Shown here piece by piece: positions 47,601 through 61,038 of a stretch of DNA of 64,000 bases. The notes beneath the pieces are model-generated. The model saw only the letters and a list, made by a program, of their open reading frames with translations, was not told the DNA's origin and ran no database searches. The stretch's first letter is position 1. Every line of letters starts with the position of its first letter. The DNA comes from a virus (taxonomy: Duplodnaviria > Caudoviricetes), in IMG/VR virus record IMGVR_UViG_3300032038_000036, positions 1 to 64,000 of that record; one strand, given 5' to 3'. The position numbers and the translations under genes are program-made.

Positions 47601-50189
47601 ATTGTTTCCTAATACTTCAAATCTGTATGATTGAATATTAGACAAATAGTTTATTAAGAATAATAAATTATGTCCTTTTATTGTATCTGATGGATGAATA
47701 TCTATGGATGCAATATTTGCATTTTTATTATATTTACCTATCATTTCTAATAAAAGAGTTCTAAATTGATTATATGCATAATGAGATTTTAAATCATTGA
47801 ATATGTTTTTACCTAATTGCTGCAATAACCAATCATCTAATCTAAGACGTTTAATTTTTCCATTAATATCTAATATATTATCATCAATATTACTAATTGT
47901 GTGCATTGGTGTATTTTCTGCTAAGTAATTGAAATATGTTCTTAACAATTGATTAAGATCACCAAATTTAGACAAATCTTCATTATAATCTTTAAGAATA
48001 TTTATAAGATCATTTTTATGTATAAATCTATCTTTAATAAACATACACATTTTACCATTAATATCTTCATTATAATAAATGGAATTAAAATATTCACTTA
48101 CTTTATATTTATTTGTTGTAAGTTGTGTTGTGTAATATAAAGTATCATACAACCAATAAAATCTTTCAAAATATTCTTGGGTATCATATGTTTTACCAAT
48201 AAGCATAAATTGCTTTACTTTTTCTTCATCATATATGTTTGCATATACTTCTTCAAAGAAATTAATATTATTGTATGCTTCCAATATTTCAAATCCAGTA
48301 ACTTCTTTTTCAACAATTTTATCTGACAATTCTTTGATAGTAAGATAATACTTAAATTGATTTAAGATATCAGTTGTTTTATAGTACATATTTTCTTCAA
48401 TGTAATTTTCTTCAATTATATATGTACCATGTAAATCTTTAATCATGTTTTGGTCAATTTTAACATTATCACTATTGAAATTATTTAAAGATATATCAAT
48501 AATCTTGTTATAATATTCTACATTATTTTCTTTATTATATAATTTCATATTATATGCTTGATTATAATTGTAGAATTTTTGTCCATTTGATAATGTTTCT
48601 GAACTTAATACAATATCTGCTTTAACTAATGCATCATAAAAATTTTGCTCAGTTAAGTAATTTAAATGAGCTCCACAGAATACACCAAATTTATCAATAT
48701 CACCAAGTTCTTTTAAGTTATATAAAATTCCATTAAAATATGTATATCCGTATCTAACATCAGTCCATTTTGAATTTTTGAAGAAATTATTAACAAATGA
48801 TTTATCATTAAAGTTTGGACAATATTCTTCCATATTATACCATGATGAACAATAGTTAGTCATTAACTTATAATATTTATCAATATTGTTTGTATTAGTA
48901 ACAAGTTTATTACCAACATTTTTAACAACTCTATAATATTTATCAATTGATGCTCCTATAGGTAATTTTAAGTTATTATGATCTATTATAACTTTAGGGA
49001 ATAATCCTTTGAACATTGTTGGGAACTCCCCATATTTTTTATTAGGATATTGATTATATGAATAAGCAAAGTTAACATTTGTTATATAAGGATTATTATC
49101 ATCAGATAACATCATCTTAAATTTACAATACATTGGTGTTATCTTATTTGTATATGCATACTTTGTATATTTAGATTCATTGAGAGCAGGGAATCCAACA
49201 TCCATTATATTGATATTCTTACTATCTGCATCTTTACCAATTACAAAATCATATAACCCAGTATATGCATTATATTTTTTGAACTTTGTATATGATGTTG
49301 TATAATTAATATCAAAGTCATACATTTCATATGCGGTATTTCCTTTTGTATAATAATGACCAAATATTTTGAATTTTGCTCCAGTAAAGAATTTACGTTC
49401 ATAACTATTAAATAAATCATTAATATTAAATGAGAAGCTTAATGGGATAATTTGTCTCATTATCATATGATTTCTTTCAAATCCTTTACATATTGTATAA
49501 TCAAAATTATTAATAGTTTTTTGACTTACATATAAGTCACCAAATAAATTATCTTTATATTGTTCAATACCTCCATTATTAATATCAATACCAAAATATG
49601 TAGCTTGTAAAGAATCCTGCAAACAGAATATAACACGTTCATCTATTTGCTTTAAGTATCTTGTTAAATAGTTCTTAAGATAATTACGTTTATTGTCTTT
49701 ATTAATATATACTTTTATTGTTTTTGTTAAATGATCATTAAATACAATGCTTATACAGAAATATTCTGGAAGATCATTAACATTATCAATATATATTGGT
49801 GCATAGAAATTAAACTGACTACCATTTTGACTATATTGGATTCTTTTACAACCAAATTCGTAGTCTTTATTACGAGAGTCATTATTGTAATTATATATTG
49901 AGTTTAAATCTAAAATTGCATAATTATTTTTATTGTATGTATAATTATGCTTGTAAAAAACATCTGAATAATAGTAATGATATCTTGATACATCATATTC
50001 ATACTTACCATCTAATAAATTCAATTCATAATTTTTATTAGCCATGAAATTCTGCAATGGAACCATGTTAGCAAGTCTAACATATGTTGAATATTCATTA
50101 GTACTTTCTTTGTCAATTTCTCTTAATTTACAAGCAATTGTAAAATTGCCAGATAATGTTGGTAAAGTTCTTAATAAAGGTTTGAACAT
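44670..50189 (-). CDS. very large Asn/Tyr/Ile-rich hypothetical, probably virion protein
   Basis: 1839-aa uninterrupted ORF. Confidence 0.7.
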   Translation of the reverse strand: MFKPLLRTLPTLSGNFTIACKLREIDKESTNEYSTYVRLANMVPLQNFMANKNYELNLLDGKYEYDVSRYHYYYSDVFYKHNYTYNKNNYAILDLNSIYNYNNDSRNKDYEFGCKRIQYSQNGSQFNFYAPIYIDNVNDLPEYFCISIVFNDHLTKTIKVYINKDNKRNYLKNYLTRYLKQIDERVIFCLQDSLQATYFGIDINNGGIEQYKDNLFGDLYVSQKTINNFDYTICKGFERNHMIMRQIIPLSFSFNINDLFNSYERKFFTGAKFKIFGHYYTKGNTAYEMYDFDINYTTSYTKFKKYNAYTGLYDFVIGKDADSKNINIMDVGFPALNESKYTKYAYTNKITPMYCKFKMMLSDDNNPYITNVNFAYSYNQYPNKKYGEFPTMFKGLFPKVIIDHNNLKLPIGASIDKYYRVVKNVGNKLVTNTNNIDKYYKLMTNYCSSWYNMEEYCPNFNDKSFVNNFFKNSKWTDVRYGYTYFNGILYNLKELGDIDKFGVFCGAHLNYLTEQNFYDALVKADIVLSSETLSNGQKFYNYNQAYNMKLYNKENNVEYYNKIIDISLNNFNSDNVKIDQNMIKDLHGTYIIEENYIEENMYYKTTDILNQFKYYLTIKELSDKIVEKEVTGFEILEAYNNINFFEEVYANIYDEEKVKQFMLIGKTYDTQEYFERFYWLYDTLYYTTQLTTNKYKVSEYFNSIYYNEDINGKMCMFIKDRFIHKNDLINILKDYNEDLSKFGDLNQLLRTYFNYLAENTPMHTISNIDDNILDINGKIKRLRLDDWLLQQLGKNIFNDLKSHYAYNQFRTLLLEMIGKYNKNANIASIDIHPSDTIKGHNLLFLINYLSNIQSYRFEVLGNNNGIDIKDYFIKNEVNEKNIYVDPYNIEEYIKLYNKEYPNDKINTTFVYKKFYSNILSKDHLIEFYRKLKDSDADYNSIIINNNLLDIIYVKERCWYIEKNKINIKDRYITLYEYLYKKFIELGDDGRRKYKQYVDAEDKKQKKLLENKYLSCLNDFFEYFIYLHNSKDNGVVLDWLTNSLSDMKSVNNKFVFNVNLTGYDINISWNIELDLCIYKDMILLDSNLRKLIDHNYFLYLFINDKATLENLSMWPIISNNDLINNEKYTYKETDDYLTPLFTNIYFNEYDLNLIQQMINSNKISINNKYIVSSNKYFKEIDVDDTFRSLLINNDKNIYSIIDDIEKLYNDHNNLEETFIELKELLASHFNFNYFIFDENIENISLEKLLLDNFINHRDNINVVQFNNDYKDTFEILVEGQINGLNDSRLSEGGIYYNKLKDIYDTIVKQYDIYVYLNTLNVYNTLDHIDNIINELNMSAPMLNGIRLLNDEHLDNTLDIINTLITKYNNELLPFFNDIKNELTSLFYIDKNFSVSISNFNLDNLTINILMNNKELFIEHLRDNTFSISWINEIVNIESYNYNDAVIFKDKWNDYCLNNEIYVEDINKDNYEKRIDIIIDYVKSYYNELYYKLINNRGIILYSLSTILDMKYDLLIGDKLQYDDKYKIYTYEYNGKKYAFYYINIDIDNTNNSFNVLNEFNLNVKFDAIDDIKITDERFNSFFSKIFYLLEPFLRLNVFNEFAKNANTIIYPYEAEINVEYMSSLTNDDNIKKQYKLMSDDGILYDNIIKMSKSKKIKLLRYFNYITPLLVKKHVIQDNWELQFIDNTNNDIYIKKYNVLTKDNINIYRYNGIKYYNGSYSKTTESFMKNSEIEQPTILSQYEYKHFNDNVVYNLPEEIFIEDNKVYTYDEISEYKENRDKMTEEKKKILLEYFNDLGLEYNNIILFLFNKYDSNMTIEPIKLRANKNEKLYKVSYKFKLI

Positions 50190-50349
50190 ATTTCTAAATC
50201 TTACTATATATTATATATAATTAAAAATAACAGCAAATTTTAGTATCAAATGAAAAAAAATTAAGAAAATCTTGAATTTCTTTTGACATTGTACTAATTT
50301 TGTATTATTATAAATTAAATAAACTAATAATTAAGTAAATTTCGGAAAT

Positions 50350-50463
50350 ATGAAACAACTCAGTCAACATATCGTATCTATGATCGGCTCATCAATTTTT
50401 GGTGAACCTTGTGGATTGAGCTTTGAACCTAATGGGATAGTTTCCGGATATACTGAAATATAA
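50350..50463 (+). CDS. leader peptide 1 of tRNA array (37 aa)
   Basis: MKQLSQHIVSMIGSSIFGEPCGLSFEPNGIVSGYTEI; TTCCGGA (50442-50448) complementary to terminator 5' arm. Confidence 0.75.
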   Translation: MKQLSQHIVSMIGSSIFGEPCGLSFEPNGIVSGYTEI

Positions 50464-50498
50464 ATGTTGAGTACATAAGATAGTATCAATATAAAGCA

Positions 50499-50529
50499 GG
50501 ACTCCGGAACGCAAGTTTCGGAGTTTTTT
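50499..50529 (+). terminator. attenuator terminator 1
   Basis: GGACTCCGGAAC gcaa GTTTCGGAGTTT plus T tract. Confidence 0.85.
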
Positions 50530-50578
50530 AGTTTTATAAACAATGAATAAAAAATTTCTAAAAAAAATTCTTAAAAAG

Positions 50579-50617
50579 TTTGAAATAAATCCGGAAGATA
50601 CTATTTTACAATTGTAA
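50579..50617 (+). promoter_or_regulatory. phage promoter motif ahead of tRNA array 1
   Basis: 39-nt motif copy. Confidence 0.65.
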
Positions 50618-50659
50618 TGAAAAACAAATAATATTTAATAACAAATATTATATAAATTT

Positions 50660-50731
50660 GGCCGGTTCATCTAAGGGTCAGGATGACAGGTTTTCAACCT
50701 GTTCATAGGGGTTCGAATCCCCTACCGGCTA
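50660..50731 (+). tRNA. tRNA-Glu(TTC)
   Basis: cloverleaf; acagg tt TTC aa cctgt. Confidence 0.92.
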
Positions 50732-50735
50732 CGAA

Positions 50736-50810
50736 GCTCTGGAAATATCGGTTCGAATCCGACTAAAGCACCTAATAAGGCATGGTAGACTAACGGTAAG
50801 TCAACAGAGT
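50736..50810 (+). ncRNA. circularly permuted tRNA-like RNA (degenerate acceptor)
   Basis: T arm tcgg ttcgaat ccga precedes D arm gact aacggta agtc; ends pair GCTCTG/CAGAGT. Confidence 0.6.
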
Positions 50811-50838
50811 ATTTTTCTCAATTTCTAAAATTGAATTA

Positions 50839-50869
50839 GTTCTTTGACATATTGGTACAACAAAATAAA
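50839..50869 (+). promoter_or_regulatory. boxA-like antitermination element
   Basis: GTTCTTTGACATATTGG...; 29 nt identical to 61240-61268. Confidence 0.6.
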
Positions 50870-50873
50870 CTAA

Positions 50874-50989
50874 AGATTCTATGGGTGCCCATTTGGTGAA
50901 AGTCAAATCTTAGGTGGGCCGGGGGTTCGAATCCCTCACGTTCCGCTGGGAGCGTTGGCAGAGTGGTTTAATGTAGCCCTAAGGAATCT
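50874..50989 (+). ncRNA. circularly permuted tRNA-Ser-like RNA
   Basis: 3' half GGGGGTTCGAATCCCTC-ACGTTCC, 4-nt linker, 5' half GGAGCGT-TGGCAGAGTGGTTTAATG; fully paired acceptor; CTTAGG/CCTAAG and AGATTC/GAATCT closing helices. Confidence 0.8.
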
Positions 50990-50993
50990 ATTT

Positions 50994-51082
50994 GGAGAGT
51001 AATGCTTGATGGTGATAGCGGGTGCCTGCTAAGCATTGCGTCCGGCTAATCACCGGATCTGGTTCGATTCCAGTGCTCTCCG
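50994..51082 (+). tRNA. tRNA-Ser(GCT), 8/4 fold
   Basis: 8-bp acceptor GGAGAGTA/TGCTCTCC, 4-bp T stem, long V arm, G73. Confidence 0.85.
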
Positions 51083-51085
51083 CAA

Positions 51086-51185
51086 GTATTCAAATATATC
51101 CGCTAAGGAGTCAGAAGTTTAAATCTTTCCCTGGGTTTGAATGGCCTGGGTGGCAGAATGTTGAATGATTGCAATATTTGAATAC
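51086..51185 (+). ncRNA. degenerate permuted tRNA-like RNA on 12-bp stem
   Basis: GTATTCAAATAT/ATATTTGAATAC; V arm, T-like arm, CCTGGGT/GCCTGGG acceptor, TGGCAGAATG D-like arm. Confidence 0.55.
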
Positions 51186-51191
51186 ATATTT

Positions 51192-51277
51192 GGAGAATGA
51201 ACTGCGGCGGCCCGCAGGACTGTCTTGAAAACAGCTCGTTCGGTGAAACGGATTGGGATCGACACCTACTTTCTCCG
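51192..51277 (+). tRNA. tRNA-Ser(TGA), 8/4 fold with 6-bp D stem
   Basis: GGAGAATG/CTTTCTCC; CTGCGG cggc CCGCAG; T loop ATCGACA. Confidence 0.75.
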
Positions 51278-51279
51278 CA

Positions 51280-51446
51280 AATTTACTGGTGAAGAATAGA
51301 GATACTTCATAAGTTTGCAAAACTGGTGGAAGCAAGTTCCTTGTCGGTTCGAGTCCGGCCCATGGTCATTATGTACCGCGGTGGTGAAACTGGTAAACAC
51401 GCTGGTCCTTTTATAATTATTCTTTATTCGACAATTCCGTAAATTT
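51280..51446 (+). ncRNA. Y-RNA-like module A carrying permuted tRNA-Leu-like domain
   Basis: AATTTAC-TGG-TGAA-GAATAGAG-ATACTTC ... CTTTATTC-GACAATT-CC-GTAAATT enclosing T arm, CCATGGT/ACCGCGG acceptor, then D arm. Confidence 0.75.
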
Positions 51447-51452
51447 TTTATT

Positions 51453-51524
51453 GGGTCTATGTCTGAGCGGTGTAGGTGGTGGTCTGCAAAACCATTTAGC
51501 CCGGTTCGACTCCGGGTGGGCCCT
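51453..51524 (+). tRNA. tRNA-Cys(GCA)
   Basis: gtggt ct GCA aa accat; U73. Confidence 0.9.
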
Positions 51525-51526
51525 CA

Positions 51527-51666
51527 AATTATCTGGTGTATATAAGAGTTACTTCGATTACTTTTTTAATTAAGTGGTTTTAATGCAATTTTTTCAGAAT
51601 TGATTCCTCGGTTCGAATCCGAGAGAAAGTTTCATAACAATACTTTTATAGCTGTTCCGATAATTA
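51527..51666 (+). ncRNA. Y-RNA-like module B enclosing whole tRNA-like cloverleaf (TTC anticodon, 51560-51631)
   Basis: GAGTTACTTC motif; AATTATC/GATAATT closing stem. Confidence 0.7.
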
Positions 51667-51670
51667 ATTT

Positions 51671-51747
51671 GGGCTGATAGCGTAGGTGGTAGTTTGGCGC
51701 GCTGGACTGAAAATCCAGAGGCGAAGGTTCGACTCCTTCTCGGCCCA
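51671..51747 (+). tRNA. tRNA-Phe(GAA)
   Basis: ctgga ct GAA aa tccag. Confidence 0.9.
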
Positions 51748-51754
51748 CAATAAT

Positions 51755-51827
51755 GGAGGTCTGGCAGATATGGTATATGCGCCGGACTGAAAATCCGGTT
51801 AACCTGGTTCGAGTCCGGGGGCCTCCA
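51755..51827 (+). tRNA. tRNA-Phe(GAA)
   Basis: ccgga ct GAA aa tccgg. Confidence 0.92.
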
Positions 51828-52113
51828 CAATATAAATTGCAACCCAAAATGATATGGAAAATAAGTTGTAATTTATATTATAAAGACTTAGAGTAAATTG
51901 AGCAAAAGTCCCCCAGACGTGTATCTAAGTTTAAATTGTTTAAGCTCAACCGATGTTGAGTAAACTCTGGAAGTAATTATATTAAACAATATGCGCATAT
52001 TCATAATTATTTTCAGTATCTTGAGAGTTATCTTGTCCTTAAGGCGCCAAGAAGTACCTCGCTTACGTGGAATGTAGAGGAAATATTAAGTACAAGGATT
52101 TGGAAAGATTTAT

Positions 52114-52190
52114 CTGGGTGTATGCCGGTAATTGGTGATCCGTCCTCGCTTGGAACGAGGTTTATGCAGGCTCGAGTCCTGTCACCCAGA
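52114..52190 (+). tRNA. tRNA-Pro(TGG)
   Basis: cctcg ct TGG aa cgagg; atypical D arm. Confidence 0.82.
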
Positions 52191-52599
52191 CTCAATTGTA
52201 ATTTTCAAGATATGCGGACAAACGTTAAAGCAGCTGCAAGTCCAGCTCCAGAAATGGTATAGGACTCGGTAAGACCTATGTGGGTCGGTAGCTACGAACC
52301 CCTTAGTGAGACGAGGAAAGTGAGAAGATTACAATTATCTTATATACGGAGATACGTGGTGAGACGCCTAGTAGGGCCCGCGAGGTTCGATAGTTTAAGA
52401 TAGAATACCGTATAACAAATAAATGTTAGGAGATTGCCCACCGAGATTTAAGGTAGCTCCTTAAACAGCTGAATGGGAAACAGGTAAGCTCTGTTATGAT
52501 ATTGAATATCGGCCGTAAAAATATCAACAACTTGAAGAGAAATAGTTAACATTTATTTTTGAAAAATATAATGATAATTTCTATTTATTATTATATAAT

Positions 52600-52673
52600 C
52601 GGGATGTAGTACAGTTGGTTAGTATTCGTGTTTTGGGAACATGAGGTCGCTGGTTCGAGTCCAGTCATCCCGA
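52600..52673 (+). tRNA. tRNA-Pro(TGG)
   Basis: cgtgt tt TGG ga acatg. Confidence 0.92.
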
Positions 52674-52803
52674 CATCTCAACCTTGGCAAATAATCAATT
52701 ATATGTGTGAGAGAGCCATTAAGACGCGATAACTGAGGTAATCACTGAAACACATGCGAGCAATAGAGATAGTTATCTTGAGGTTGTCAATAATTGATTT
52801 TAT

Positions 52804-52877
52804 AGGGAGGTGGCCTAATTGGTTAAGGTTCGTGATTTGGGATCACGAGAGTGCGGGTTCGAGTCCCGTCCTCCCTA
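52804..52877 (+). tRNA. tRNA-Pro(TGG)
   Basis: cgtga tt TGG ga tcacg. Confidence 0.9.
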
Positions 52878-52880
52878 CAA

Positions 52881-52960
52881 ATTGGCTAGTGAAGTGGAGA
52901 GTTACTTCAATGATAATGATTTAAGACTGACTATTTACTTTCTGCGCTTATTCTGCCAAT
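52881..52960 (+). ncRNA. Y-RNA-like module C (no cargo)
   Basis: ATTGGC-TAG-TGAA-GTGGAGAG-TTACTTC ... ACTTTCTGC-GCTTATT-CT-GCCAAT. Confidence 0.7.
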
Positions 52961-52966
52961 AAATTT

Positions 52967-53038
52967 GGCCCTGTCATCTAACGGTCAGGATCTCAGGTTT
53001 TCAACCTGGTCATCGGAGTTCGAGTCTCCGCGGGGCTA
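52967..53038 (+). tRNA. tRNA-Glu(TTC)
   Basis: tcagg tt TTC aa cctgg. Confidence 0.92.
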
Positions 53039-53043
53039 CAAAT

Positions 53044-53120
53044 AATTCCTTGTTGTAGAGTAGAGTTACTTCAAAGAATGTGGTTTTAATAAGATACTTT
53101 ATTCGCTTATTACAGGAATT
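53044..53120 (+). ncRNA. Y-RNA-like module D (no cargo)
   Basis: AATTCCT-TGT-TGTA-GAGTAGAG-TTACTTC ... ACTTTATTC-GCTTATT-AC-AGGAATT. Confidence 0.7.
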
Positions 53121-53123
53121 TAT

Positions 53124-53197
53124 GGGGATATCATACTAACAGGTTAGGTGGCAACCCTTTCAAGGTTGAGATACGGGTTCGAGCCCCGTTATCCCTA
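53124..53197 (+). tRNA. tRNA-Glu(TTC)
   Basis: caacc ct TTC aa ggttg. Confidence 0.88.
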
Positions 53198-53426
53198 CAA
53201 AGTTCACATCCCAGACAGATGGGTAAAGTTAGCATTAGAGATATGGGTTATCCGGAAATTTTATCACATATCACTTGCTGGAGTTGTCATAATCGAGTGC
53301 GCATCAAGAAAGAACTCCCATAGGCTTAAGCTTAAATACATTGGGCGAGATGGAACAGAACTTTATTTATGCACTTACTAAAACGCGAAAAACGGGTTCT
53401 TGAGGTTATCCATAAACCTCAAATAT

Positions 53427-53499
53427 TGGGCTGTCGTCTAACTGGTAAGGATACCGCCCTGATAAGGCGGCGATCTCGGATCATTCCCGAGTGGCCCAA
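53427..53499 (+). tRNA. tRNA-Ile(GAT), atypical T loop
   Basis: ccgcc ct GAT aa ggcgg; T loop ATCATTC. Confidence 0.75.
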
Positions 53500-53505
53500 C
53501 AACAT

Positions 53506-53579
53506 TGGGATATACAGTATAATGGTTAGTACAGCGGACTCTGACTCCGCAGGTTTCGGTTCGAATCCGGATATCCCAA
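53506..53579 (+). tRNA. tRNA-Gln(CTG)
   Basis: gcgga ct CTG ac tccgc; U1-A72. Confidence 0.9.
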
Positions 53580-53664
53580 CGTACCTTTTGGTTGTAGGTG
53601 ACTTTTCAGCATAGGCACAGCGAGCTTCGCGCCGCCGTTTACTAATAATGGAACCTTCATTTAT

Positions 53665-53738
53665 TGGGCTATGCTGTGTAACGGTTAGCACGTCAGCCTT
53701 TGAAGCTGAAGGTCTGAGTTCGAATCTCGGTAGCCCAA
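53665..53738 (+). tRNA. tRNA-Gln(TTG)
   Basis: tcagc ct TTG aa gctga; U1-A72. Confidence 0.9.
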
Positions 53739-53739
53739 C

Positions 53740-53864
53740 AATAAAGGTATAGGTTCGAATCCTATATGGCAGTATTGAAGTCTATATGACTGATGGTTAA
53801 TAGTTCTAGAATGTTAATCTGAAAATGTAAACTCTGTCATTGGTGTAGGAGGTAGCATATTATT
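53740..53864 (+). ncRNA. circularly permuted tRNA-like RNA with about 60-nt linker
   Basis: AATAA-AGGT-ATAGG ttcgaat CCTAT-ATGGCAG ... CTGTCAT-TG-GTGT aggaggta GCAT-A-TTATT; all four stems pair. Confidence 0.8.
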
Positions 53865-53869
53865 TATAT

Positions 53870-53943
53870 TGAGCTGTATTTCAGTTGGTTAGAATGCCAT
53901 CCTGATAAGATGGAGGTCGTAGGTTCAAGTCCTATCAGCTCAA
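53870..53943 (+). tRNA. tRNA-Ile(GAT)
   Basis: ccatc ct GAT aa gatgg. Confidence 0.9.
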
Positions 53944-53947
53944 CTTT

Positions 53948-54173
53948 GGGAATTAGCAAAATGATTCGTATGAAAGTCATTATCTGTAAATATTTGCGTA
54001 AGGCCGCGATTAGGCCGAAAGTTCTCGAGATCAATAATATTTATAATAATGATAAGTAATGACAGAAAGAGAAATTAGTAAGATTAGCTAACTTACGAAA
54101 TTGAATTTGAAGAAGCGAACATACTGCGCTACCCGTGGGTGGGTAGAGGTCCTGTGAAAGTCAGTGGTTCCCG
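53948..54173 (+). ncRNA. large tRNA-like RNA with expanded D domain
   Basis: GGGAATTA/TGGTTCCC terminal stem, CTACCC/GGGTAG arm, AGGTC, CTG tgaaagt CAG T-like loop. Confidence 0.45.
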
Positions 54174-54268
54174 ACCGTATAATGAAGTTTTGAAAATTTC
54201 ATATTTTCAATAACACCGGTCCCATCCTATGCTACTCGAGGTAGGCATGGAACTAGGCCGGTGACCAT

Positions 54269-54341
54269 GGGGATGTCGTATAACGGTTTATTACGATGGT
54301 CTCATAAGCCGTAGAAGGTGGTTCGATTCCACCCATCCCTA
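54269..54341 (+). tRNA. tRNA-Met(CAT) (or lysidine Ile2)
   Basis: atggt ct CAT aa gccgt. Confidence 0.85.
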
Positions 54342-54445
54342 CACATGGAGGTTCACTTGCGCAGGACTAGTTAAACAGTACTTACAATTATATCTTGCAA
54401 AGAAAAACAATCGGATATCTGATAGTGATAAGATACCTCCACCCA

Positions 54446-54588
54446 AATTCCTTGTTGAATTGAAGAGTTACTTCTTAATCCGCCAGAAACTTTGGATTTT
54501 TAGCTTAATTGGTTAGAGCGCGGGCCTGCAAAGCCCGAGGTGATGGTTCAAGCCCATAAATATACTTTTCGAGAATGTTACAGGAATT
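54446..54588 (+). ncRNA. Y-RNA-like module E enclosing tRNA-Cys(GCA)-like cloverleaf with decayed acceptor
   Basis: GAGTTACTTC; AATTCCT/AGGAATT; gctt aattggtta gagc g cgggc ct GCA aa gcccg. Confidence 0.72.
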
Positions 54589-54592
54589 ACTT

Positions 54593-54665
54593 GCGGCTGT
54601 CGTATAACGGTTTATTATACTCGCCTTCCAAGCCAGGGACGTGGGTTCGACTCCCATCAGCCGCT
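54593..54665 (+). tRNA. tRNA-Gly(TCC)
   Basis: ctcgc ct TCC aa gccag. Confidence 0.9.
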
Positions 54666-54787
54666 CGCATTAGTAATGGAGTTTGGTAACGCAGAGTTTT
54701 CTCAAGGTTCTCCACGTTAAATTTAAAAACTGCTTTTAATGTGGGCACCGTTTTATATTCGAGAATATAGTACGGTGCTTATATAAT

Positions 54788-54860
54788 GCATCTGTCGTAT
54801 AACGGTTCAGTACGTTCGCCTTCCAAGCCTAAGACGTGGGTTCGACTCCCATCAGATGCT
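54788..54860 (+). tRNA. tRNA-Gly(TCC)
   Basis: ttcgc ct TCC aa gccta (mismatched stem). Confidence 0.85.
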
Positions 54861-54875
54861 CTATTCTTAATTGAT

Positions 54876-54949
54876 GGCCCTCGGGACAGATTGGTTTAAG
54901 TCGTCGGTCTCTCAAGCCGGAATAACGGGTTCGAATCCCGTGGGGGCTA
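54876..54949 (+). tRNA. tRNA-Glu(CTC)
   Basis: tcggt ct CTC aa gccgg. Confidence 0.88.
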
Positions 54950-54957
54950 CAATAATT

Positions 54958-55089
54958 CGCGGAGTGGTGAAATTTAAAATTAGACTTTATTCGCTGTTGC
55001 TTCGAATGAATGCTGTAGATTAGAGTTACTTCGGTATACACGCTTTTCAGGAAAAAAAGATTATGTTGGTTCGAGTCCAACCTCCGCGA
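54958..55089 (+). ncRNA. tRNA-like gene with permuted Y-like module F inserted in D loop
   Basis: CGCGGAG/CTCCGCG acceptor; GTG AAATT [about 54976-55032 insert ending GAGTTACTTC] GGTATA CAC. Confidence 0.72.
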
Positions 55090-55197
55090 CGACGCAGTTT
55101 CGAAAGACCCATACTCTGGTGTGATGAGATAATATCAAGGAAGCACATACTAGTGGCAAAAAGTAGAGGTTCAAAATGGTGGGAAGCCATTAACAAT

Positions 55198-55272
55198 GCG
55201 GGTGTAGTATAACGGTTATTACATGACATTGCCAATGTCGAGACGTGAGTTCGACTCTCATCATCCGCTCCA
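55198..55272 (+). tRNA. tRNA-Gly(GCC)
   Basis: tgaca tt GCC aa tgtcg; encoded CCA. Confidence 0.92.
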
Positions 55273-55328
55273 TTTTGGAATCATATTGAACAATTGGTGA
55301 ACTTTAGTGTGGTTCCTGTTCACCCCAT

Positions 55329-55401
55329 GCGGTAGTAGCTCAATTGGTAGAATGTCACCTTGCCAAGGTGAAGGTTGCGGGTTCGAGTCCCGTCTACCGC
55401 T
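55329..55401 (+). tRNA. tRNA-Gly(GCC)
   Basis: tcacc tt GCC aa ggtga. Confidence 0.92.
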
Positions 55402-55514
55402 CACAATAAAAATAGTCCAATGCCGATAAAGTTCTTACAGCACGGTATAAAAACATGTATATTTATCTGTAAGTAATATATGCATAGATAGTTTAAGTGG
55501 TTTCTATCATTTAT

Positions 55515-55661
55515 GCGGATGTAGTATAAAGGAAAGTACACCGTTAAAAAGATTTTTATGACCTTTTAACGCTGTTACATCGTAAGATTGTTGTAGTTGA
55601 GAGTTACTTCAAATTATTGCATTCCAAGCCGGGGATGTTGGTTCGAGTCCAACCGTCCGCT
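55515..55661 (+). ncRNA. tRNA-Gly(TCC) interrupted in anticodon stem by permuted Y-like module G
   Basis: GCGGATG/CGTCCGC acceptor; CCG [55544-55618 insert] GC at TCC aa GCCGG. Confidence 0.75.
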
Positions 55662-55937
55662 CAAATTATTTAAGATCTTAAATCCAGTTGTTGTTCCTGT
55701 TCTGGGAGAATATATTCCGGTATATCTCATAAAAACAAAAGCAGGGCCGTGACAATACAGAGGATTCCCTGAGGCCTCTGAAAAAATCCGCTTAGGGCCA
55801 TCTTCATGAGGTTAATGTTGAAATCCCGCCCTCGCAGCTTGAGCAACTATAAGCCTTGATTATAGTAAAAAACATATCGGGACAAGACAGGGAGAATGGT
55901 TGACCTGTCATTTTTATAAATAAATAGGAATTTTGTT

Positions 55938-56261
55938 ATGGAATACACTTACAGTGGATTAGAAAACAGAATTTCTGCGGAACACTTGAAAGCTGGTGAA
56001 GTTGTAAAAGTTACAGGAAAGGGGAATTCGATGACCCCAATATTAAAGTCTAGACAACCTGTAATTTGTATTCCAGTTGATGAAAATACTGTGTTAGCGA
56101 AACGTGACATAGTTTTGTGCAAAGTCAATGGACATTATTACCTTCACCTTATTTGGAGTTTGAAACCAGGAGATAGATTCTTGATTGGGAATAATCATAA
56201 TCATCCAAATGGGGTTATATCAAGAAACAATATCTTTGGTAAAGTGGTAGAAATTCTATGA
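55938..56261 (+). CDS. S24/S26 family peptidase-like protein
   Basis: GNSMTP, DIVLCKV, YYLHLI, IFGKV. Confidence 0.8.
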   Translation: MEYTYSGLENRISAEHLKAGEVVKVTGKGNSMTPILKSRQPVICIPVDENTVLAKRDIVLCKVNGHYYLHLIWSLKPGDRFLIGNNHNHPNGVISRNNIFGKVVEIL

Positions 56262-56306
56262 GTTTCACAAACTCATTATTTTTCCTTAATTCCTTTTTAT
56301 TAACAT

Positions 56307-56381
56307 GGTGTCGTTAACTTAACTGGTGAAAGGCGGTGACTGTGAATCACTGAGATGTCGGTTCGAATCCGATGCGACACA
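56307..56381 (+). tRNA. tRNA-His(GTG)
   Basis: ggtga ct GTG aa tcact; G-1. Confidence 0.88.
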
Positions 56382-56547
56382 CGCGATAAAACTATAATAA
56401 ATTCTAAGTAATGCTGTCGAGGTTAGTCCGAAGGTAACGAAGAAGTGTACACCTGCAACTCAGGAGAGGAAAATTCGCAGAAACATCGGTGAGGGATTTA
56501 TTTACAATTTGAGTTTTTGATAAGTTGTTTAAGAAATTGTTTTATAT

Positions 56548-56631
56548 GGTGGTATTCGTCTAGAGGCCGATGACGCCAGATTGTGGTCCTGGTAGCGAGA
56601 GCTCACGTTGGTTCGAATCCAACATACCACC
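56548..56631 (+). tRNA. tRNA-His(GTG) with long variable arm
   Basis: ccaga tt GTG gt cctgg; G-1:C73; V arm tagcgagagctcac. Confidence 0.85.
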
Positions 56632-56796
56632 CGAATATCTTGAAGGACATACCTGTATATGAACCAGGAGAAGTTACCGTAGGCAACCAATGTGTAGCAT
56701 CATACAATCAAGGCAAAGCATTAGAGTTGTACGGGATAGTGAAATGTAAAGGTATCTATCGAGGCTTATGCTTGTGCCAGTCAAACAAGCATCATT

Positions 56797-56883
56797 GGAG
56801 GTGTGGCAGAGCGGTCGATTGCACCGGTCTTGAAAACCGGAGGCCGTGAGAGCGGCCCGTAGGTTCGAATCCTACCGCCTCCG
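56797..56883 (+). tRNA. tRNA-Ser(TGA)
   Basis: ccggt ct TGA aa accgg; long V arm. Confidence 0.93.
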
Positions 56884-56903
56884 CAATAATATATAGAGAG
56901 AAA

Positions 56904-57224
56904 ATGAAAATCGATGAAAAGAGATTTTTACAAGAAAGCGATAAAACCGGTCGTTTTATTGTAAAATCAAAAATAACAGGAAAGAAATATTTTGTAGAAC
57001 CTATTGGTAATACACATTCTGCAGATTGGGGAGATTTGGATCCTGCAACAAAAAAGATGACTGGATCTTATGGAGAACGATATGAAGGATGTGTACCTGA
57101 AAAAGATTCTCTTATAACTGAAGCAAACGGATTTGAGAAAATTGAATTGCTTGATGCTGGTGTTTCTCCATTATCAGAAATTGATAGAAGAGATAGAGAA
57201 TATCAGAAACAGATGGGTTTATAA
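56904..57224 (+). CDS. hypothetical protein in tRNA array
   Basis: ORF. Confidence 0.7.
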   Translation: MKIDEKRFLQESDKTGRFIVKSKITGKKYFVEPIGNTHSADWGDLDPATKKMTGSYGERYEGCVPEKDSLITEANGFEKIELLDAGVSPLSEIDRRDREYQKQMGL

Positions 57225-57260
57225 TTTTATTTTTAATTACAAATATAATTATATAATAAA

Positions 57261-58376
57261 ATGAAAGACTTATTTGAGTTTTTATCAGATAATATTTATG
57301 AAAAGGATATATTCCTTGAGACAGTAAATATGATTGTTGATGAAACAATTAATGAAAGTTTCCAAGCATCAATATTAACTGAATTAGCAAAGAGAATTAA
57401 AGATGCTGAAAAGGAACATGCTGACCAAGATAAAAAAGAAGAACAAAGATACAAAGAAGAAGGTCGCGGTTATAAGCCAACAAAGACAGCAAAAACTTTC
57501 GCATCTATTTTTGGTCCATTAACAGAAACTCCAAGATGGGGTGACAAGAAAACTGGTATTCGTGGTTTGAAATGGTCAGAAATTAAAGATAGTGATTTCA
57601 AACAATATAAAGGTGATGATAAAGAATTTGTAAAGTTCTTAAAATCAGTTTATGCAAAGAAAGCAATTGCCGATATGATTGTTTGTGCTCCAGGTACTAA
57701 AGATATTGTATGTTTTATTAAAGGATATGCAAAAACTTTAGGAGATGTAAGAGTATATTACTTTGCAACAGAAGGTTGGAAAAAGGGTGTTCAAGAGAAA
57801 ACTGAAAAGAAATACAAATATGATGTACGTTCTTTGAAGGTTAATGAAACACTTGAATTGATTAAAGATTTTGACGTATATGTTCTTGAAGTTACAGAAT
57901 CAATGATTAAAGATTATGATGAACTTCATAAAGATCGTACTGATGCTCAAAAAGGTTCAATTGAAATGGACGAAGCAAGTATGAAAACTTTGCTTAAACA
58001 ACAAAAAGCTCGTTATGATGCAATGGTTAAAGAAATAAAAGCAAAGAAACTTCAAGATGATCCAAATATTTTATTCAATGACATAAAGAAAGCAAATGAT
58101 GATGTTGTTGCTTTGTTCCAAAAGGTAATGTCAAAACCTGAAAATATGGATATGCGTTTTGATTTATCAGATTTAATGAGATATGTTTCTTATGCATATG
58201 AACAATTCTACAAATCAATGAAATCTCTTAGAACTGCTAAACGTAGTGAAGATAGATATGGTAAGGGATATGGGAAATATGATAAAGAACGTTCTGATGA
58301 AGAAATTCGTGATGCAAAAGAATATCTTGAAAAGGTAAACAAAATGGTTAAGGAGATTGAAGACCAATTGAAATAA
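57261..58376 (+). CDS. Lys/Glu-rich hypothetical protein
   Basis: 371-aa ORF. Confidence 0.75.
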   Translation: MKDLFEFLSDNIYEKDIFLETVNMIVDETINESFQASILTELAKRIKDAEKEHADQDKKEEQRYKEEGRGYKPTKTAKTFASIFGPLTETPRWGDKKTGIRGLKWSEIKDSDFKQYKGDDKEFVKFLKSVYAKKAIADMIVCAPGTKDIVCFIKGYAKTLGDVRVYYFATEGWKKGVQEKTEKKYKYDVRSLKVNETLELIKDFDVYVLEVTESMIKDYDELHKDRTDAQKGSIEMDEASMKTLLKQQKARYDAMVKEIKAKKLQDDPNILFNDIKKANDDVVALFQKVMSKPENMDMRFDLSDLMRYVSYAYEQFYKSMKSLRTAKRSEDRYGKGYGKYDKERSDEEIRDAKEYLEKVNKMVKEIEDQLK

Positions 58377-58401
58377 CCTTAAAGATAATACTATTTATAA
58401 T

Positions 58402-58613
58402 TACGGGCAGTCATAGGTTGGTGCACAGGCCTATGAATCGAAGCAGCCTGTTAGCTACGGCAGCAGGGGAAATCGTTCGTTCCGTTCCTTAAGTGCGTGG
58501 TCTGAGGAATCTATAGAAGCGTTAGTTAGAGTTGTTGCACCTTTGTATCTTCGGATATGTGCCACATCCTGTAGAGGGCGAGAAACCTCGTTGAAACTCG
58601 AAAGAGCCACGTG
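58402..58613 (+). ncRNA. unknown structured RNA with pseudoknot
   Basis: GC-rich non-coding; TCATAGGTT/GGCCTATGA hairpin whose loop GGTGCA pairs with TGCACC (58536-58541). Confidence 0.5.
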
Positions 58614-58616
58614 TAT

Positions 58617-58685
58617 CGGGAGTTAGCTCAACGATAGAGCCATGGATTTTACTGTGAGACGGTTGTTTAACTCAATCACTCCCGA
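58617..58685 (+). pseudogene. pseudo-tRNA with 6-nt anticodon loop
   Basis: perfect CGGGAGT/ACTCCCG acceptor, GCTC/GAGC D stem, degenerate D and T loops. Confidence 0.65.
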
Positions 58686-58690
58686 CAAAA

Positions 58691-58751
58691 TTGGTTACGC
58701 AGTAAATGGTACATGTATGCTAGCTATTTGGTTCGATTCCAACGTAACCAA
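58691..58751 (+). ncRNA. tRNA-like RNA lacking a proper anticodon arm
   Basis: TTGGTTACG/CGTAACCAA stem plus TTGG ttcgatt CCAA. Confidence 0.55.
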
Positions 58752-58942
58752 CTAATAATTTGGATGCCTGCATTATCTTTTTTGACGGGTGAAAGCAGAT
58801 GGAAGATAAAAACCAGCTCGGCCATTAAACAACAGAATGTGTCCAAATAAATAATAGGTTGAATAATGACGTAACCTTAATCGTGATGGTCATTCGTGTG
58901 GTTCGGTGCCTAAGACTGCGTTAATGGAACAAGGACACTTAT

Positions 58943-59017
58943 GGGTCGGTGGCGCAAATGGTAAGACGCGCTTGCCTTAGAAGCAAGATCTTGGGGGTTC
59001 GACTCCCCCTCGGCCTA
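58943..59017 (+). tRNA. tRNA-Leu(TAG) lacking long variable arm
   Basis: cttgc ct TAG aa gcaag; V loop atctt. Confidence 0.85.
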
Positions 59018-59146
59018 CGCCTAATAGAATACTTGGGAGACTAAGAAAGGAAACGTAATAAAGATACATAAGGCCTTTGTTGATTTATTACAGACTCATC
59101 GCAAGATTTTCCTGGAGTCGGCAGTGGAATACCAAGAGGCAGATCT

Positions 59147-59222
59147 AGGAGCATAGCTCAGCTGGTTCAGTAGCGTCAGTCTTACAAACTGAAGGTCATG
59201 GGTTCGATCCCCATTGCTCCTA
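59147..59222 (+). tRNA. tRNA-Val(TAC)
   Basis: tcagt ct TAC aa actga. Confidence 0.9.
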
Positions 59223-59469
59223 CGAATACGATACCGCGTTTATGGGTAAGTTTATCCGGTTAAAATAAAACCACCTTATAACTCATTATTCAATGACTTG
59301 GTGATAGGAACTTATCGTTACCTATGAAAAAAGGAAATCATCAAGCTGAAAGAGATAGTATAACGACCTTGTCATGGCAACGTTATACATTTTTAGTAAG
59401 ACCAGTTATGTGGGTATTTGTATGTCGCGAAGTACAAATATTCATTGGTTAGAATAATTGAGTGTTTAT

Positions 59470-59548
59470 GCGGCTGTGGCGCAATTGGTCGACGCAGCGG
59501 TCTAAGAAGCCGTCCTTCGGGGTATGGGTTCGAGTCCCATCAGCCGCA
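59470..59548 (+). tRNA. tRNA-Leu(AAG)
   Basis: gcggt ct AAG aa gccgt. Confidence 0.88.
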
Positions 59549-59696
59549 CAAAGAGATACTAAGAGGTTTACTCAATGATGTATTCAAAGTACAAGGATAT
59601 TAGAGTATGGGATAGCGGGCGCTAACAGTGTGATACAGAACTTCGCACACTTAGTAACAACATAGGCGAGTGTACAGTAACTTATGGCTCTTAAAT

Positions 59697-59784
59697 ACCT
59701 TCTTGGTGGAAATGGTAGACACGCCAGTCTAAGAAACTGGTCCGAAGTAACAGTAGGGTGCGGGTTCAAATCCCGTGGGAGGTA
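59697..59784 (+). tRNA. tRNA-Leu(AAG)
   Basis: ccagt ct AAG aa actgg; long V arm. Confidence 0.88.
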
Positions 59785-59788
59785 CAAA

Positions 59789-59854
59789 TAGAACTTATCC
59801 GGTGAATGCGCGCGGGATGAGAATACTAGGAGGGTTCGACTCCCTCAGTTCTAT
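59789..59854 (+). ncRNA. tRNA-like RNA lacking anticodon arm
   Basis: TAGAACT/AGTTCTA plus GAGGG ttcgact CCCTC. Confidence 0.6.
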
Positions 59855-59886
59855 TTATATAATAAATTAATATAATAGAGAGAAAA

Positions 59887-60135
59887 ATGATTACTCATGA
59901 TTTAAAGACAATTGTAAAAGGTTCTGCCGTTCTTGATTGTGTAAAGGCAGGTGGTATTGCTGTTTATCATATAACAGTAGAAGATGGTACAATTTATTCA
60001 CTTGATATTGATTTGTCTGATAAGCATGATGTTGGAGAAACTGCTACATTTATGTCTCATTATGATAAAGCTTTAATATTGATGAGATGGATAAGACGTG
60101 CAATTGATAATGAAGAATTGTATAAGATAAACTAA
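59887..60135 (+). CDS. hypothetical protein in tRNA array
   Basis: ORF; same upstream AGAGAGAAAA as 56904. Confidence 0.65.
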   Translation: MITHDLKTIVKGSAVLDCVKAGGIAVYHITVEDGTIYSLDIDLSDKHDVGETATFMSHYDKALILMRWIRRAIDNEELYKIN

Positions 60136-60263
60136 TTTGTTGTATCAATATATTTTTATACGAGGATAGGCTTTAATGCCTGCGGCTTGAACCGCTGCTG
60201 TCCGATTTATAACGGCTAACGAGATTTAATCTCCGTGAGAACAAATGGATCCTCGTTTTTAAT

Positions 60264-60342
60264 GGCCCGATGGCGGAATTGGTCTACGCAGCTGTCTCAA
60301 AAGCAGTGCTTCGGCGTCTGGGTTCGAATCCCAGTTGGGCTA
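60264..60342 (+). tRNA. tRNA-Leu(CAA)
   Basis: gctgt ct CAA aa gcagt. Confidence 0.92.
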
Positions 60343-60479
60343 CTCGCAATTGACATTACTTATGTAATTAGAATGATTTGGAGAAAAAAATTTCTAAATC
60401 ATTCATTTTTTGTGAAAATATTTTGTCCATAAGACTATTTTATATTTATTATTAATTAAATTAAAAGAAAATATCGCAA

Positions 60480-60590
60480 ATGCAATTAGTCAATACATAT
60501 AAACAAATATTAGACCAAACATTAGATAATGCTTGGAATAAGGATTATGCGTTAAATTTTGACCACTTGCAGAATGATATGGAAGGATAA
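60480..60590 (+). CDS. leader peptide 2 of tRNA array (36 aa)
   Basis: MQLVNTYKQILDQTLDNAWNKDYALNFDHLQNDMEG; GACCACTTGCAG (60561-60572) complementary to CTGCAAGTGGTT (60618-60629). Confidence 0.78.
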   Translation: MQLVNTYKQILDQTLDNAWNKDYALNFDHLQNDMEG

Positions 60591-60621
60591 TAAGAATATA
60601 ACTATAAAATGATATAGCTGC

Positions 60622-60658
60622 AAGTGGTTAGGTGAAAAACTTAACCACTTATTTTTTT
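60622..60658 (+). terminator. attenuator terminator 2
   Basis: AAGTGGTTAGG tgaaaaa CTTAACCACTT plus A(T)7. Confidence 0.85.
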
Positions 60659-60689: not shown

Positions 60690-60728
60690 TTTGAAATTAA
60701 AACAGAAGATACTATATTATAATTGTAA
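60690..60728 (+). promoter_or_regulatory. phage promoter motif ahead of tRNA array 2
   Basis: 39-nt motif copy. Confidence 0.72.
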
Positions 60729-61038
60729 CAAAATTAAATATTATTTAATAACAAATATTATTTGATTTTTAGTTCTTTGAAATATTGAACTCAAGAGAAA
60801 TAAAATCCACTGGGTTATTGAAGAATAGGTTCAATTCCGATTCTATAACGTAGTCAGCCGGTACTCCTAAATAGGCAAAAGGAGCAATAATTCAGTAAAG
60901 GTACAAAGGTACTATATATGAGGGATTGAAAATTTCCATGGGAATTTGAAAATCAGGGTAAAGTGACCCACCACATGTAGAGCAAGGATTCGCACTTAAA
61001 TGAACATTATAGAAGAATAGTACTGGATTTTTATAAAT

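Follow-up and report, generated by a model that had tools for sequence, protein, structure and literature searches.

The window analysed here comprises the first 64 kb (64,000 nucleotides, nt) of a 100.7-kb, AT-rich (~27% GC) phage contig (IMG/VR record IMGVR_UViG_3300032038_000036). Ahead of a long array of transfer RNA (tRNA) genes it carries a leader cassette that is probably a ribosome-mediated attenuator, raising transcription of the array when codons read by the array's own tRNAs are decoded slowly. The cassette (cassette 1) contains a 37-codon open reading frame (ORF) with a TAA stop codon (leader ORF 1, 50350–50463), followed by an intrinsic terminator (50498–50529), and heads array 1 (50660–60343), for which 29 confident tRNA genes, covering 12 amino acids with 18 anticodon species, were predicted by ARAGORN. 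This reading is based on the conservation of the leader ORF, on three alternative RNA pairings with covariation, on a match between leader codons and array tRNAs together with its maintenance in evolution, and on leader RNA in one metatranscriptome. Unless otherwise stated, coordinates are those of the window and features lie on the plus strand.

In the mechanism proposed, promoter P1 would transcribe the 37-codon leader, whose codons 3–27 would be read by tRNAs of the following array. Upon smooth translation to the stop codon, the ribosome would cover region 2, the terminator of regions 3 and 4 (pairing 3:4) would form and the transcript would end at ~50530. Slow decoding of any sensor codon would make the ribosome lag, with queued ribosomes keeping region 1 covered; region 2 would then pair with region 3 (pairing 2:3) before region 4 is made, and the polymerase would read through into the tRNA array, adding to the transcription that a conserved second promoter, P2, supplies anyway. 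A second cassette would act likewise for array 2, with a complementary codon set. Candidate triggers are codon-usage mismatch, host shut-off and tRNA-cleaving defence, the link to anticodon nucleases being pure conjecture. What we infer from the computed evidence is that the leader is translated, in which direction and how strongly transcription responds, that ribosomes queue, that a pause signal may operate and what the physiological trigger is; in-frame insertions and deletions, an invariant ATG and a fixed stop position may be taken as indirect pointers to leader translation.

Five constituents of a leader-peptide attenuator were found, namely a leader ORF, a terminator, an antiterminator (2:3), an anti-antiterminator (1:2) and cognate codons. 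An attenuator had already been suggested in a preliminary description of this DNA, made from the sequence without database searches; the interpretation is supported, and the computational checks proposed there all came out in its favour.

Parts, conservation and pairings of cassette 1

The promoter-like site for the leader transcript, P1 (50283–50311), reads TTGACA-17 nt-TATTAT and agrees with the consensus at 11 of 12 positions. The sole other copy of an extended motif around P1 in the 100-kb contig lies upstream of the second leader (60444), and P1-related motifs were also found upstream of the leader in relatives. Region 1 (50341–50349) is the segment of the 5′ untranslated region (UTR) adjoining the start codon; in the minimum-free-energy fold of the full leader RNA it pairs with 50440–50448, and it is predicted to be the anti-antiterminator and also to occlude the initiation region. 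Leader ORF 1 was recovered over the same 37 codons as in the preliminary description. Its codons 3–27 are designated the sensor zone (50356–50430; 25 codons, all decodable by array 1), and an internal hairpin within the ORF (50386–50408), predicted in the window and in most relatives, has a near-invariant nucleotide sequence in which even synonymous sites hardly change; this hairpin is possibly a polymerase pause signal. Region 2, the antiterminator strand (50440–50448), lies in codons 31–33 and is complementary to the 5′ arm of the terminator, TTCCGGA (50442–50448) facing TCCGGAA in region 3 (50503–50509). The strong intrinsic terminator that had been described 35 nt past the stop codon is present, with a stem of 13 pairs (50498–50527) followed by a T run. 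Between this terminator and the first tRNA gene lie promoter P2 (50579–50617), a member of a general promoter family of the phage, and, downstream of it, an AT-rich inverted repeat (50628–50651, no strand assigned), read from the sequence as a candidate operator; similar AT-rich repeats also occur in relatives and after the second cassette.

Relatives were collected using the divergently transcribed neighbour protein of 1839 residues as anchor; this brought in 5 viral contigs and 45 metagenome loci with 35–96% identity. The cassette, which on the earlier proposal should recur in related phages, did so: leader ORF 1 is located between the anchor and the first tRNA in ~30 of the 45 metagenome loci and in the 5 viral contigs. 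The relatives comprise 22 distinct leader sequences of 34–42 codons, in which the ATG never varies and every change in length preserves the reading frame, and the anchor proteins accompanying these 22 sequences share only 37–96% identity. The distance from the end of region 2 to the stop codon is a constant 8 nt in 22 of 24 sequences, and every relative has a terminator with a T run after the leader ORF. A non-coding small RNA or a tRNA remnant was also considered for the ORF region and rejected, since the in-frame conservation argues against both.

Pairing 2:3 was evaluated in a MAFFT alignment of 21 sequences, where 87.7% of the cells were paired, compared with 21–60% when the partner was slid by 1–3 columns. 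The antiterminator measures 7–11 base pairs (bp) in 21 of 21 aligned relatives, many of them, at 10–11 bp, exceeding the window's own. One variable pair is C-G in 8, U-A in 11 and U-G in 2 sequences, with no mismatches (C-A included), and the covariation score of the pairing lay above all 500 shuffles. The terminator helix (3:4) had 97.4% of its cells paired and three covarying pairs. As to the antiterminator geometry seen earlier in TTCCGGA and TCCGGAA, the motif is present and its pairing is conserved in the 21 relatives, but the 7 nt of the window, taken alone, are within chance expectation (p = 0.24 vs. codon shuffles). In relatives, the partner of region 2 in pairing 1:2 is a segment of 9–13 nt immediately before the ATG. 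RNAalifold gave almost no consensus structure on the leader alone, because region 1 is not positionally homologous; pairing 1:2 was therefore tested by duplex energy against shuffles, and in 13 of the 17 distinct relatives, whose region-1 sequences differ, it did better than the shuffles (p ≤ 0.03).

Folding of the full-length RNA in the absence of a ribosome yielded 1:2 together with the terminator (3:4), at a z-score of −3.8. In constrained folds, 2:3 formed in the nascent RNA before region 4 exists and was prevented by a ribosome at the stop codon, the behaviour expected of an attenuator with and without ribosome masking. At equilibrium the terminator always won in these folds, which means that switching, as in trp, has to be kinetic. 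Judged by folding and alignment, pairings 1:2, 2:3 and 3:4 are the predicted alternative structures of a classical attenuator, and stall-dependent read-through would be compatible with the masked thermodynamic folds. Within 200 bp the motif is found three or four times, and its copies covary together, which would also fit regions 1–4 being DNA sites for a phage or host protein, repeated directly and inverted, instead of RNA pairings. Such an explanation is very improbable, given the T run after regions 3 and 4 in every relative, the tolerance of G-U but not C-A pairs (an RNA signature) and the return of the geometry with unrelated sequences at the second cassette and at two distant leaders (L028 and L044, below).

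A natural variant of leader 1 with a 1-nt deletion was observed in two independent assemblies (L001:5640–5770, minus strand, and L012). The frame shifts before region 2, the stop moves 18 nt downstream and pairing 1:2 is absent.

Database searches placed the cassette outside described families. An exact IMG/VR search for the terminator found nothing, an alignment-based IMG/VR scan returned only the five viral contigs already known, and blastn against INPHARED (GenBank phages) gave matches at the tRNAs only, so leader 1 is apparently carried by no deposited GenBank phage. In Rfam, no leader, T-box or other family was matched over either cassette at the gathering threshold or at E ≤ 10, and leader peptides 1 and 2 belong to no family in Pfam or PHROGs.

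Codon match, second cassette and further leader types

Codons 3–27 of leader 1 specify exactly the same 12 amino acids as the 29 confident tRNAs of array 1, in agreement with the earlier description, where "exactly 12" holds for the confident ARAGORN predictions only, as weaker tRNA-like matches occur in the array gaps. Array 1 can read 30 of the 36 leader codons (p = 2e-5 vs. phage codon usage) and array 2 can read 14 of them; the amino-acid composition match has p = 1e-5 against proteome usage. Within the sensor zone, 15 of the 18 anticodon species of array 1 are sampled. The Leu codons CTC and TTG and the Ile codons ATC/ATT occur there and have cognate tRNAs in array 1, which bears out the Leu match claimed before. 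The further statement that the ORF samples all 4 Gly, all 3 Ile and 5 Ser codons is right for the ORF as a whole, but GGG, ATA and TCC lie outside codons 3–27, and ATA had to be dropped as an array-matched codon, there being no array-1 tRNA that reads it. A comparison of leader codons with array anticodons, one of the proposed checks, was significant, and leader 1 came second when the 196 small ORFs from all frames of the contig were ranked.

The match was followed through the sensor zone of 20 distinct leader-1 relatives. Of the derived codon states 77 of 80, and of the derived residues 46 of 49, stay within the array-1 set, compared with 69% expected if single-base neighbours are drawn and 56% expected under BLOSUM-like exchange (p about 1e-9, with derived states that are not fully independent). 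Chemically dissimilar residues interchange (e.g. Glu, Val, Ile and Ser in one column), and none of the usual replacements by Asp, Thr, Ala, Lys or Tyr is seen. By this comparison of related sequences, the match to the array's codon set appears to be maintained by selection. Codons outside the set cluster at codon 2, in the 0–3 codons before region 2 and after region 2; a ribosome stalled just before region 2 would itself cover region 2.

Leader codons also co-vary with array content, as had been suggested for related phages. In all four lineages with tRNA-Leu(UAA) as the first tRNA of the array, the sensor zone contains two or three TTA codons, and most other lineages have none there; a leader type rich in Asn, Asp and Trp (L034/L035) is followed by an array whose first tRNAs are those for the same three amino acids. 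In a comparison of nine leader types, own-array matches exceeded cross matches, and none of 20,000 permutations was as high; in this permutation relatedness was ignored and arrays were cut at 3 kb (metagenome flanks).

A second cassette (60480–60650), unrelated in sequence to the first, heads array 2. It comprises the promoter-like motif at 60444, related to P1 and shared by just these two sites of the contig, a 36-codon leader ORF 2 (60480–60590) unrelated to leader 1 and conserved in 3 related phage records, and a terminator with a T run (60622–60658). Region 2 of this cassette (60558–60572) pairs with 60618–60632, a segment overlapping the 5′ arm of the terminator (60622–60650), in a 15-bp duplex of −23.2 kcal/mol, and 0 of 500 codon shuffles were as good (p < 0.002). 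In the three related phage records the cassette is conserved with two covariation events. In one, regions 2, 3 and 4 shift together at the cost of a His-to-Arg substitution; the other falls outside the terminator stem and therefore supports pairing 2:3 specifically. Of the 35 codons of leader 2, array 2 can read 31 (p = 3e-4) and array 1 can read 11; leader 2 samples 13 of the 15 array-2 anticodon species and uses TTA and ATA, for which tRNA-Leu(UAA) and tRNA-Ile(UAU) are present in array 2. Array-discriminating residues are divided 14:4 in leader 1 and 4:19 in leader 2 (Fisher p = 1.5e-4), and the reciprocal pattern recurs when the leaders of three related genomes are scored against the arrays of the same genome.

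Among more distant leaders with unrelated sequences, the 3′ end is again complementary to the leader's own terminator in L028 (10 nt, p = 0.002), L044 (11 nt, p = 0.006), L042 (p = 0.01) and L032 (p = 0.03). Three other ORFs at the head of arrays, L033 (2717–2818, minus strand of its locus), L050 and L041, end in TAG and have no ORF-to-terminator pairing. If TAG were read through, the frame of L033 would continue into the 5′ arm of the terminator and would then couple translation to termination in a different way, an idea suggested by a suppressor tRNA with a CUA anticodon in the array region (see below).

These observations bear on the view that the leaders are simply small-protein genes that happen to head the tRNA blocks and have a promoter and a terminator apiece, and that codon match and complementarity have no regulatory meaning for the tRNAs. 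Each ORF does have a promoter-like site and a strong terminator, the tRNAs have a promoter of their own and the peptide core is highly conserved; the 7-nt pairing of the window is not significant and the composition match is modest against empirical nulls. The covariation of regions 2, 3 and 4, paid for in cassette 2 with the His-to-Arg change, is not what a plain gene predicts, nor are the tolerance of chemically unlike residues with the usual exchanges missing, the reciprocal fit of two unrelated leaders to their arrays, the return of the geometry with unrelated sequences and the lack of a known protein family for either peptide. We regard the small-gene view as unlikely.

The strongly conserved core around GEPCG, invariant also where a synonymous change would be neutral for a codon sensor, and the fixed spacing between region 2 and the stop codon would suit a nascent-peptide arrest sensor of the TnaC/SecM type, in which a small molecule or factor would make the core stall the ribosome and the peptide matters, not the codons. 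This is distinctly improbable: the design or the fit to the array is retained in leader 2, L028, L034 and L048, although these share no motif with leader 1, variation at flanking positions is free inside the codon set, and no known arrest motif was recognised by reading of the sequence, which is not a database test.

Beyond this contig, we lean slightly towards a general form of the attenuator reading, namely that tRNA-rich phages use modular feedback, in which each sub-array has a leader listing its codons, and slow decoding of any of these codons would switch the attenuator and raise transcription of just that block in which the missing tRNA is encoded. The class would be unpublished and also widespread, to judge by the unrelated leader sequences of one design that occur here. 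If true, classical attenuation would be extended from amino-acid supply to tRNA supply.

Promoters, leader RNA and points to be weighed

The P2 promoter family has at least 15 copies ahead of plus-strand genes, in the window from 5299 to 61190 and in the contig to 88840. Its long conserved core reads TTTGAAAT, 12 nt, TACTATATTA.... Four copies lie inside the tRNA region (50579, 60690, 61152 and, in contig numbering, 67554). The copy at 50579 is conserved at the same place in relatives, with the AT-rich inverted repeat behind it, and a copy of the same general family is located behind cassette 2 (60690–60728). The caveat of a promoter motif at 50579, raised in the preliminary description, is thus real. 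The promoter lies after the terminator; attenuation would therefore only add transcripts started at P1 and would not gate the array.

RNA data were available from four rumen and gut metatranscriptomes as contigs, which carry no information on starts, strands or levels. In all four, the tRNA region is strongly covered and the upstream protein gene hardly at all. In run X16, a contig of a close variant covers the leader at a depth of ~50, compared with ~2 in the neighbouring bin or gene, and variant positions place its end at 50531, 2 nt beyond the T run; this is a weak hint that a leader RNA exists and ends at the terminator. Among the contigs listed for the RNA runs, none bridges the leader and the tRNAs.

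A discrete leader RNA would also be produced if the switch served the leader transcript itself, with pairing 1:2 shutting off its own translation, the terminated RNA or the peptide acting in trans, and tRNA transcription being set by P2 and a protein binding the AT-rich repeat. Pairing 1:2 covers the start region, P2 and the inverted repeat are conserved, and the invariance of the core at the nucleotide level suggests an RNA function. Trans-acting attenuator products have precedent as well: the attenuator RNA rnTrpL and the peptide peTrpL of Sinorhizobium are reported to act in trans (PMC6614838, PMC7968998). Left unexplained would be the confinement of the sensor codons to the set of the downstream array, the partition of codons between the two leaders and the conserved 2:3 antiterminator. 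Such a role, to which we give a low probability, a shade below that of the small-gene view, is compatible with attenuation and not exclusive of it.

Several observations weigh against the tRNA-supply attenuator. A conserved promoter of the general class is placed between each terminator and its tRNAs (50579–50617 and 60690–60728), the downstream genes do not depend on read-through, and the arrays have a promoter of their own that is possibly separately regulated. In three of the four RNA runs the array is covered and the leader is not, where absence of the leader is not itself evidence. The complementarity of the window by itself is no better than chance, and its 2:3 duplex, at only 7 bp, is weaker than the terminator. 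As region 1 lies upstream of the ORF and not within it, a single stalled ribosome would leave region 1 unmasked. The composition match of a single window is worth ~1e-2 to 1e-3, not 1e-7, because of the rank among small ORFs and because 7 in-set codon runs of at least 25 occur in 201,452 six-frame positions, and the shuffle and binomial p-values overstate independence, the sequences being related. Each tRNA is probed by 1–3 scattered codons, which may make for low sensitivity to any one of them; what the element reports may be the general speed of decoding and not the state of one tRNA. The leader core is near-invariant even at synonymous sites using the same tRNA, for which the sensor idea has no explanation and which points to an additional constraint, perhaps a hairpin pause signal or a nascent-peptide effect. 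Finally, the distant leader types L033, L034, L041 and L048 have no pairing between ORF and terminator.

Known systems and neighbouring features

Leader-peptide attenuators that sense more than one amino acid are known from the enterobacterial thr and ilvGMEDA operons, and trpL, hisL, leuL and pheL belong to the same class; classical attenuators contain runs of one same codon. By mechanism, the element described here is closest to the multivalent ilv and thr leaders. Common to it and the leaders of amino-acid operons are a short ORF, an intrinsic terminator, mutually exclusive pairings 1:2, 2:3 and 3:4, and codons cognate to what the operon supplies. It differs from them in that the regulated genes are tRNAs and not biosynthetic enzymes, that 12 amino acids and 15 anticodon species are sampled 1–3 times each instead of in runs, that region 1 lies in the 5′ UTR and region 2 in the ORF upstream of the stop codon (compared with trp), and that a second promoter follows the terminator. 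The Rfam models of the Trp, His, Thr, Leu and Phe leaders gave no match at the gathering threshold or at E ≤ 10.

T-box riboswitches bind uncharged tRNA directly and need no translation. They likewise use a terminator/antiterminator switch to report tRNA status, whereas the phage element has a conserved in-frame ORF, and the T-box model of Rfam had no match at E ≤ 10 in 50150–51500. Phage tRNAs serve as counter-defence against the anticodon nucleases PrrC, RloC and PARIS, which gives a reason for phage tRNA supply to respond to tRNA loss; to our knowledge, accounts of this counter-defence include no regulatory element of the leader-attenuator kind.

The nearest published biology is the accessory tRNA operon of Anabaena sp. 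PCC 7120, the trn L-array, which is induced by translational stress and is controlled by promoter repeats and the repressor TrcR, with no mention of a leader, attenuator or terminator (PMC8421152; PMC10272220). It resembles the present case as a long accessory tRNA array, transcription of which, in Anabaena, goes up when translation is impaired; in contrast to the phage arrays, it is cellular and borne on a megaplasmid.

In a full-text literature search, no account of leader-peptide control of tRNA genes was found, such control having been met in print for amino-acid operons only, in line with the earlier statement that no description was known. If the attenuator reading is true, the phage would gauge decoding speed codon by codon and respond with the matching tRNA genes; the oldest known control at the RNA level would thereby have a new use, and there would be a direct handle on when phage tRNAs are needed and a ready-made, compact multiplexed sensor of tRNA availability for laboratory use. 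For annotation, the codons of a leader would predict which tRNA genes the following block contains and where that block begins and ends.

Array 1 forms a natural unit, and its boundary is not arbitrary, because a terminator of its own (60371–60404) ends it just before the second cassette. The tRNA genes as a whole continue uninterrupted from 50660 to ~69,900 on the contig, and ARAGORN counted 61 of them at default settings and up to 70 at lower thresholds, among them the tRNA with a CUA anticodon. This tRNA, of the amber suppressor type, closes the array past the window (contig 69819–69892) and was predicted at a lower ARAGORN threshold only in this contig and at the default threshold in two relatives.

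At 51191–51277 and in other gaps of array 1, sub-threshold tRNA-like matches were recorded, including one like tRNA-Sec (43.8 bits), and metatranscriptome contigs strongly cover the gaps between the confident tRNAs. These findings suggest that the GC-rich gaps hold further unusual or degenerate tRNA-like genes. A stretch of ~300 nt between the second P2 and tRNA-Gln (60740–61035) matches no Rfam family at E ≤ 1; its sequence, which includes a T-arm-like motif, is conserved in three related phages. Array 1 also encloses a 371-codon ORF (57261–58376) with no Pfam family and only a marginal PHROG match. Genes carried by the contig include those for T4-type baseplate, a NAD-ligase, ThyX and an SbcC-like protein, and the contig, that of a giant rumen phage, is present in sequencing runs, of DNA as well as RNA, made from the guts of cattle, sheep and other animals.

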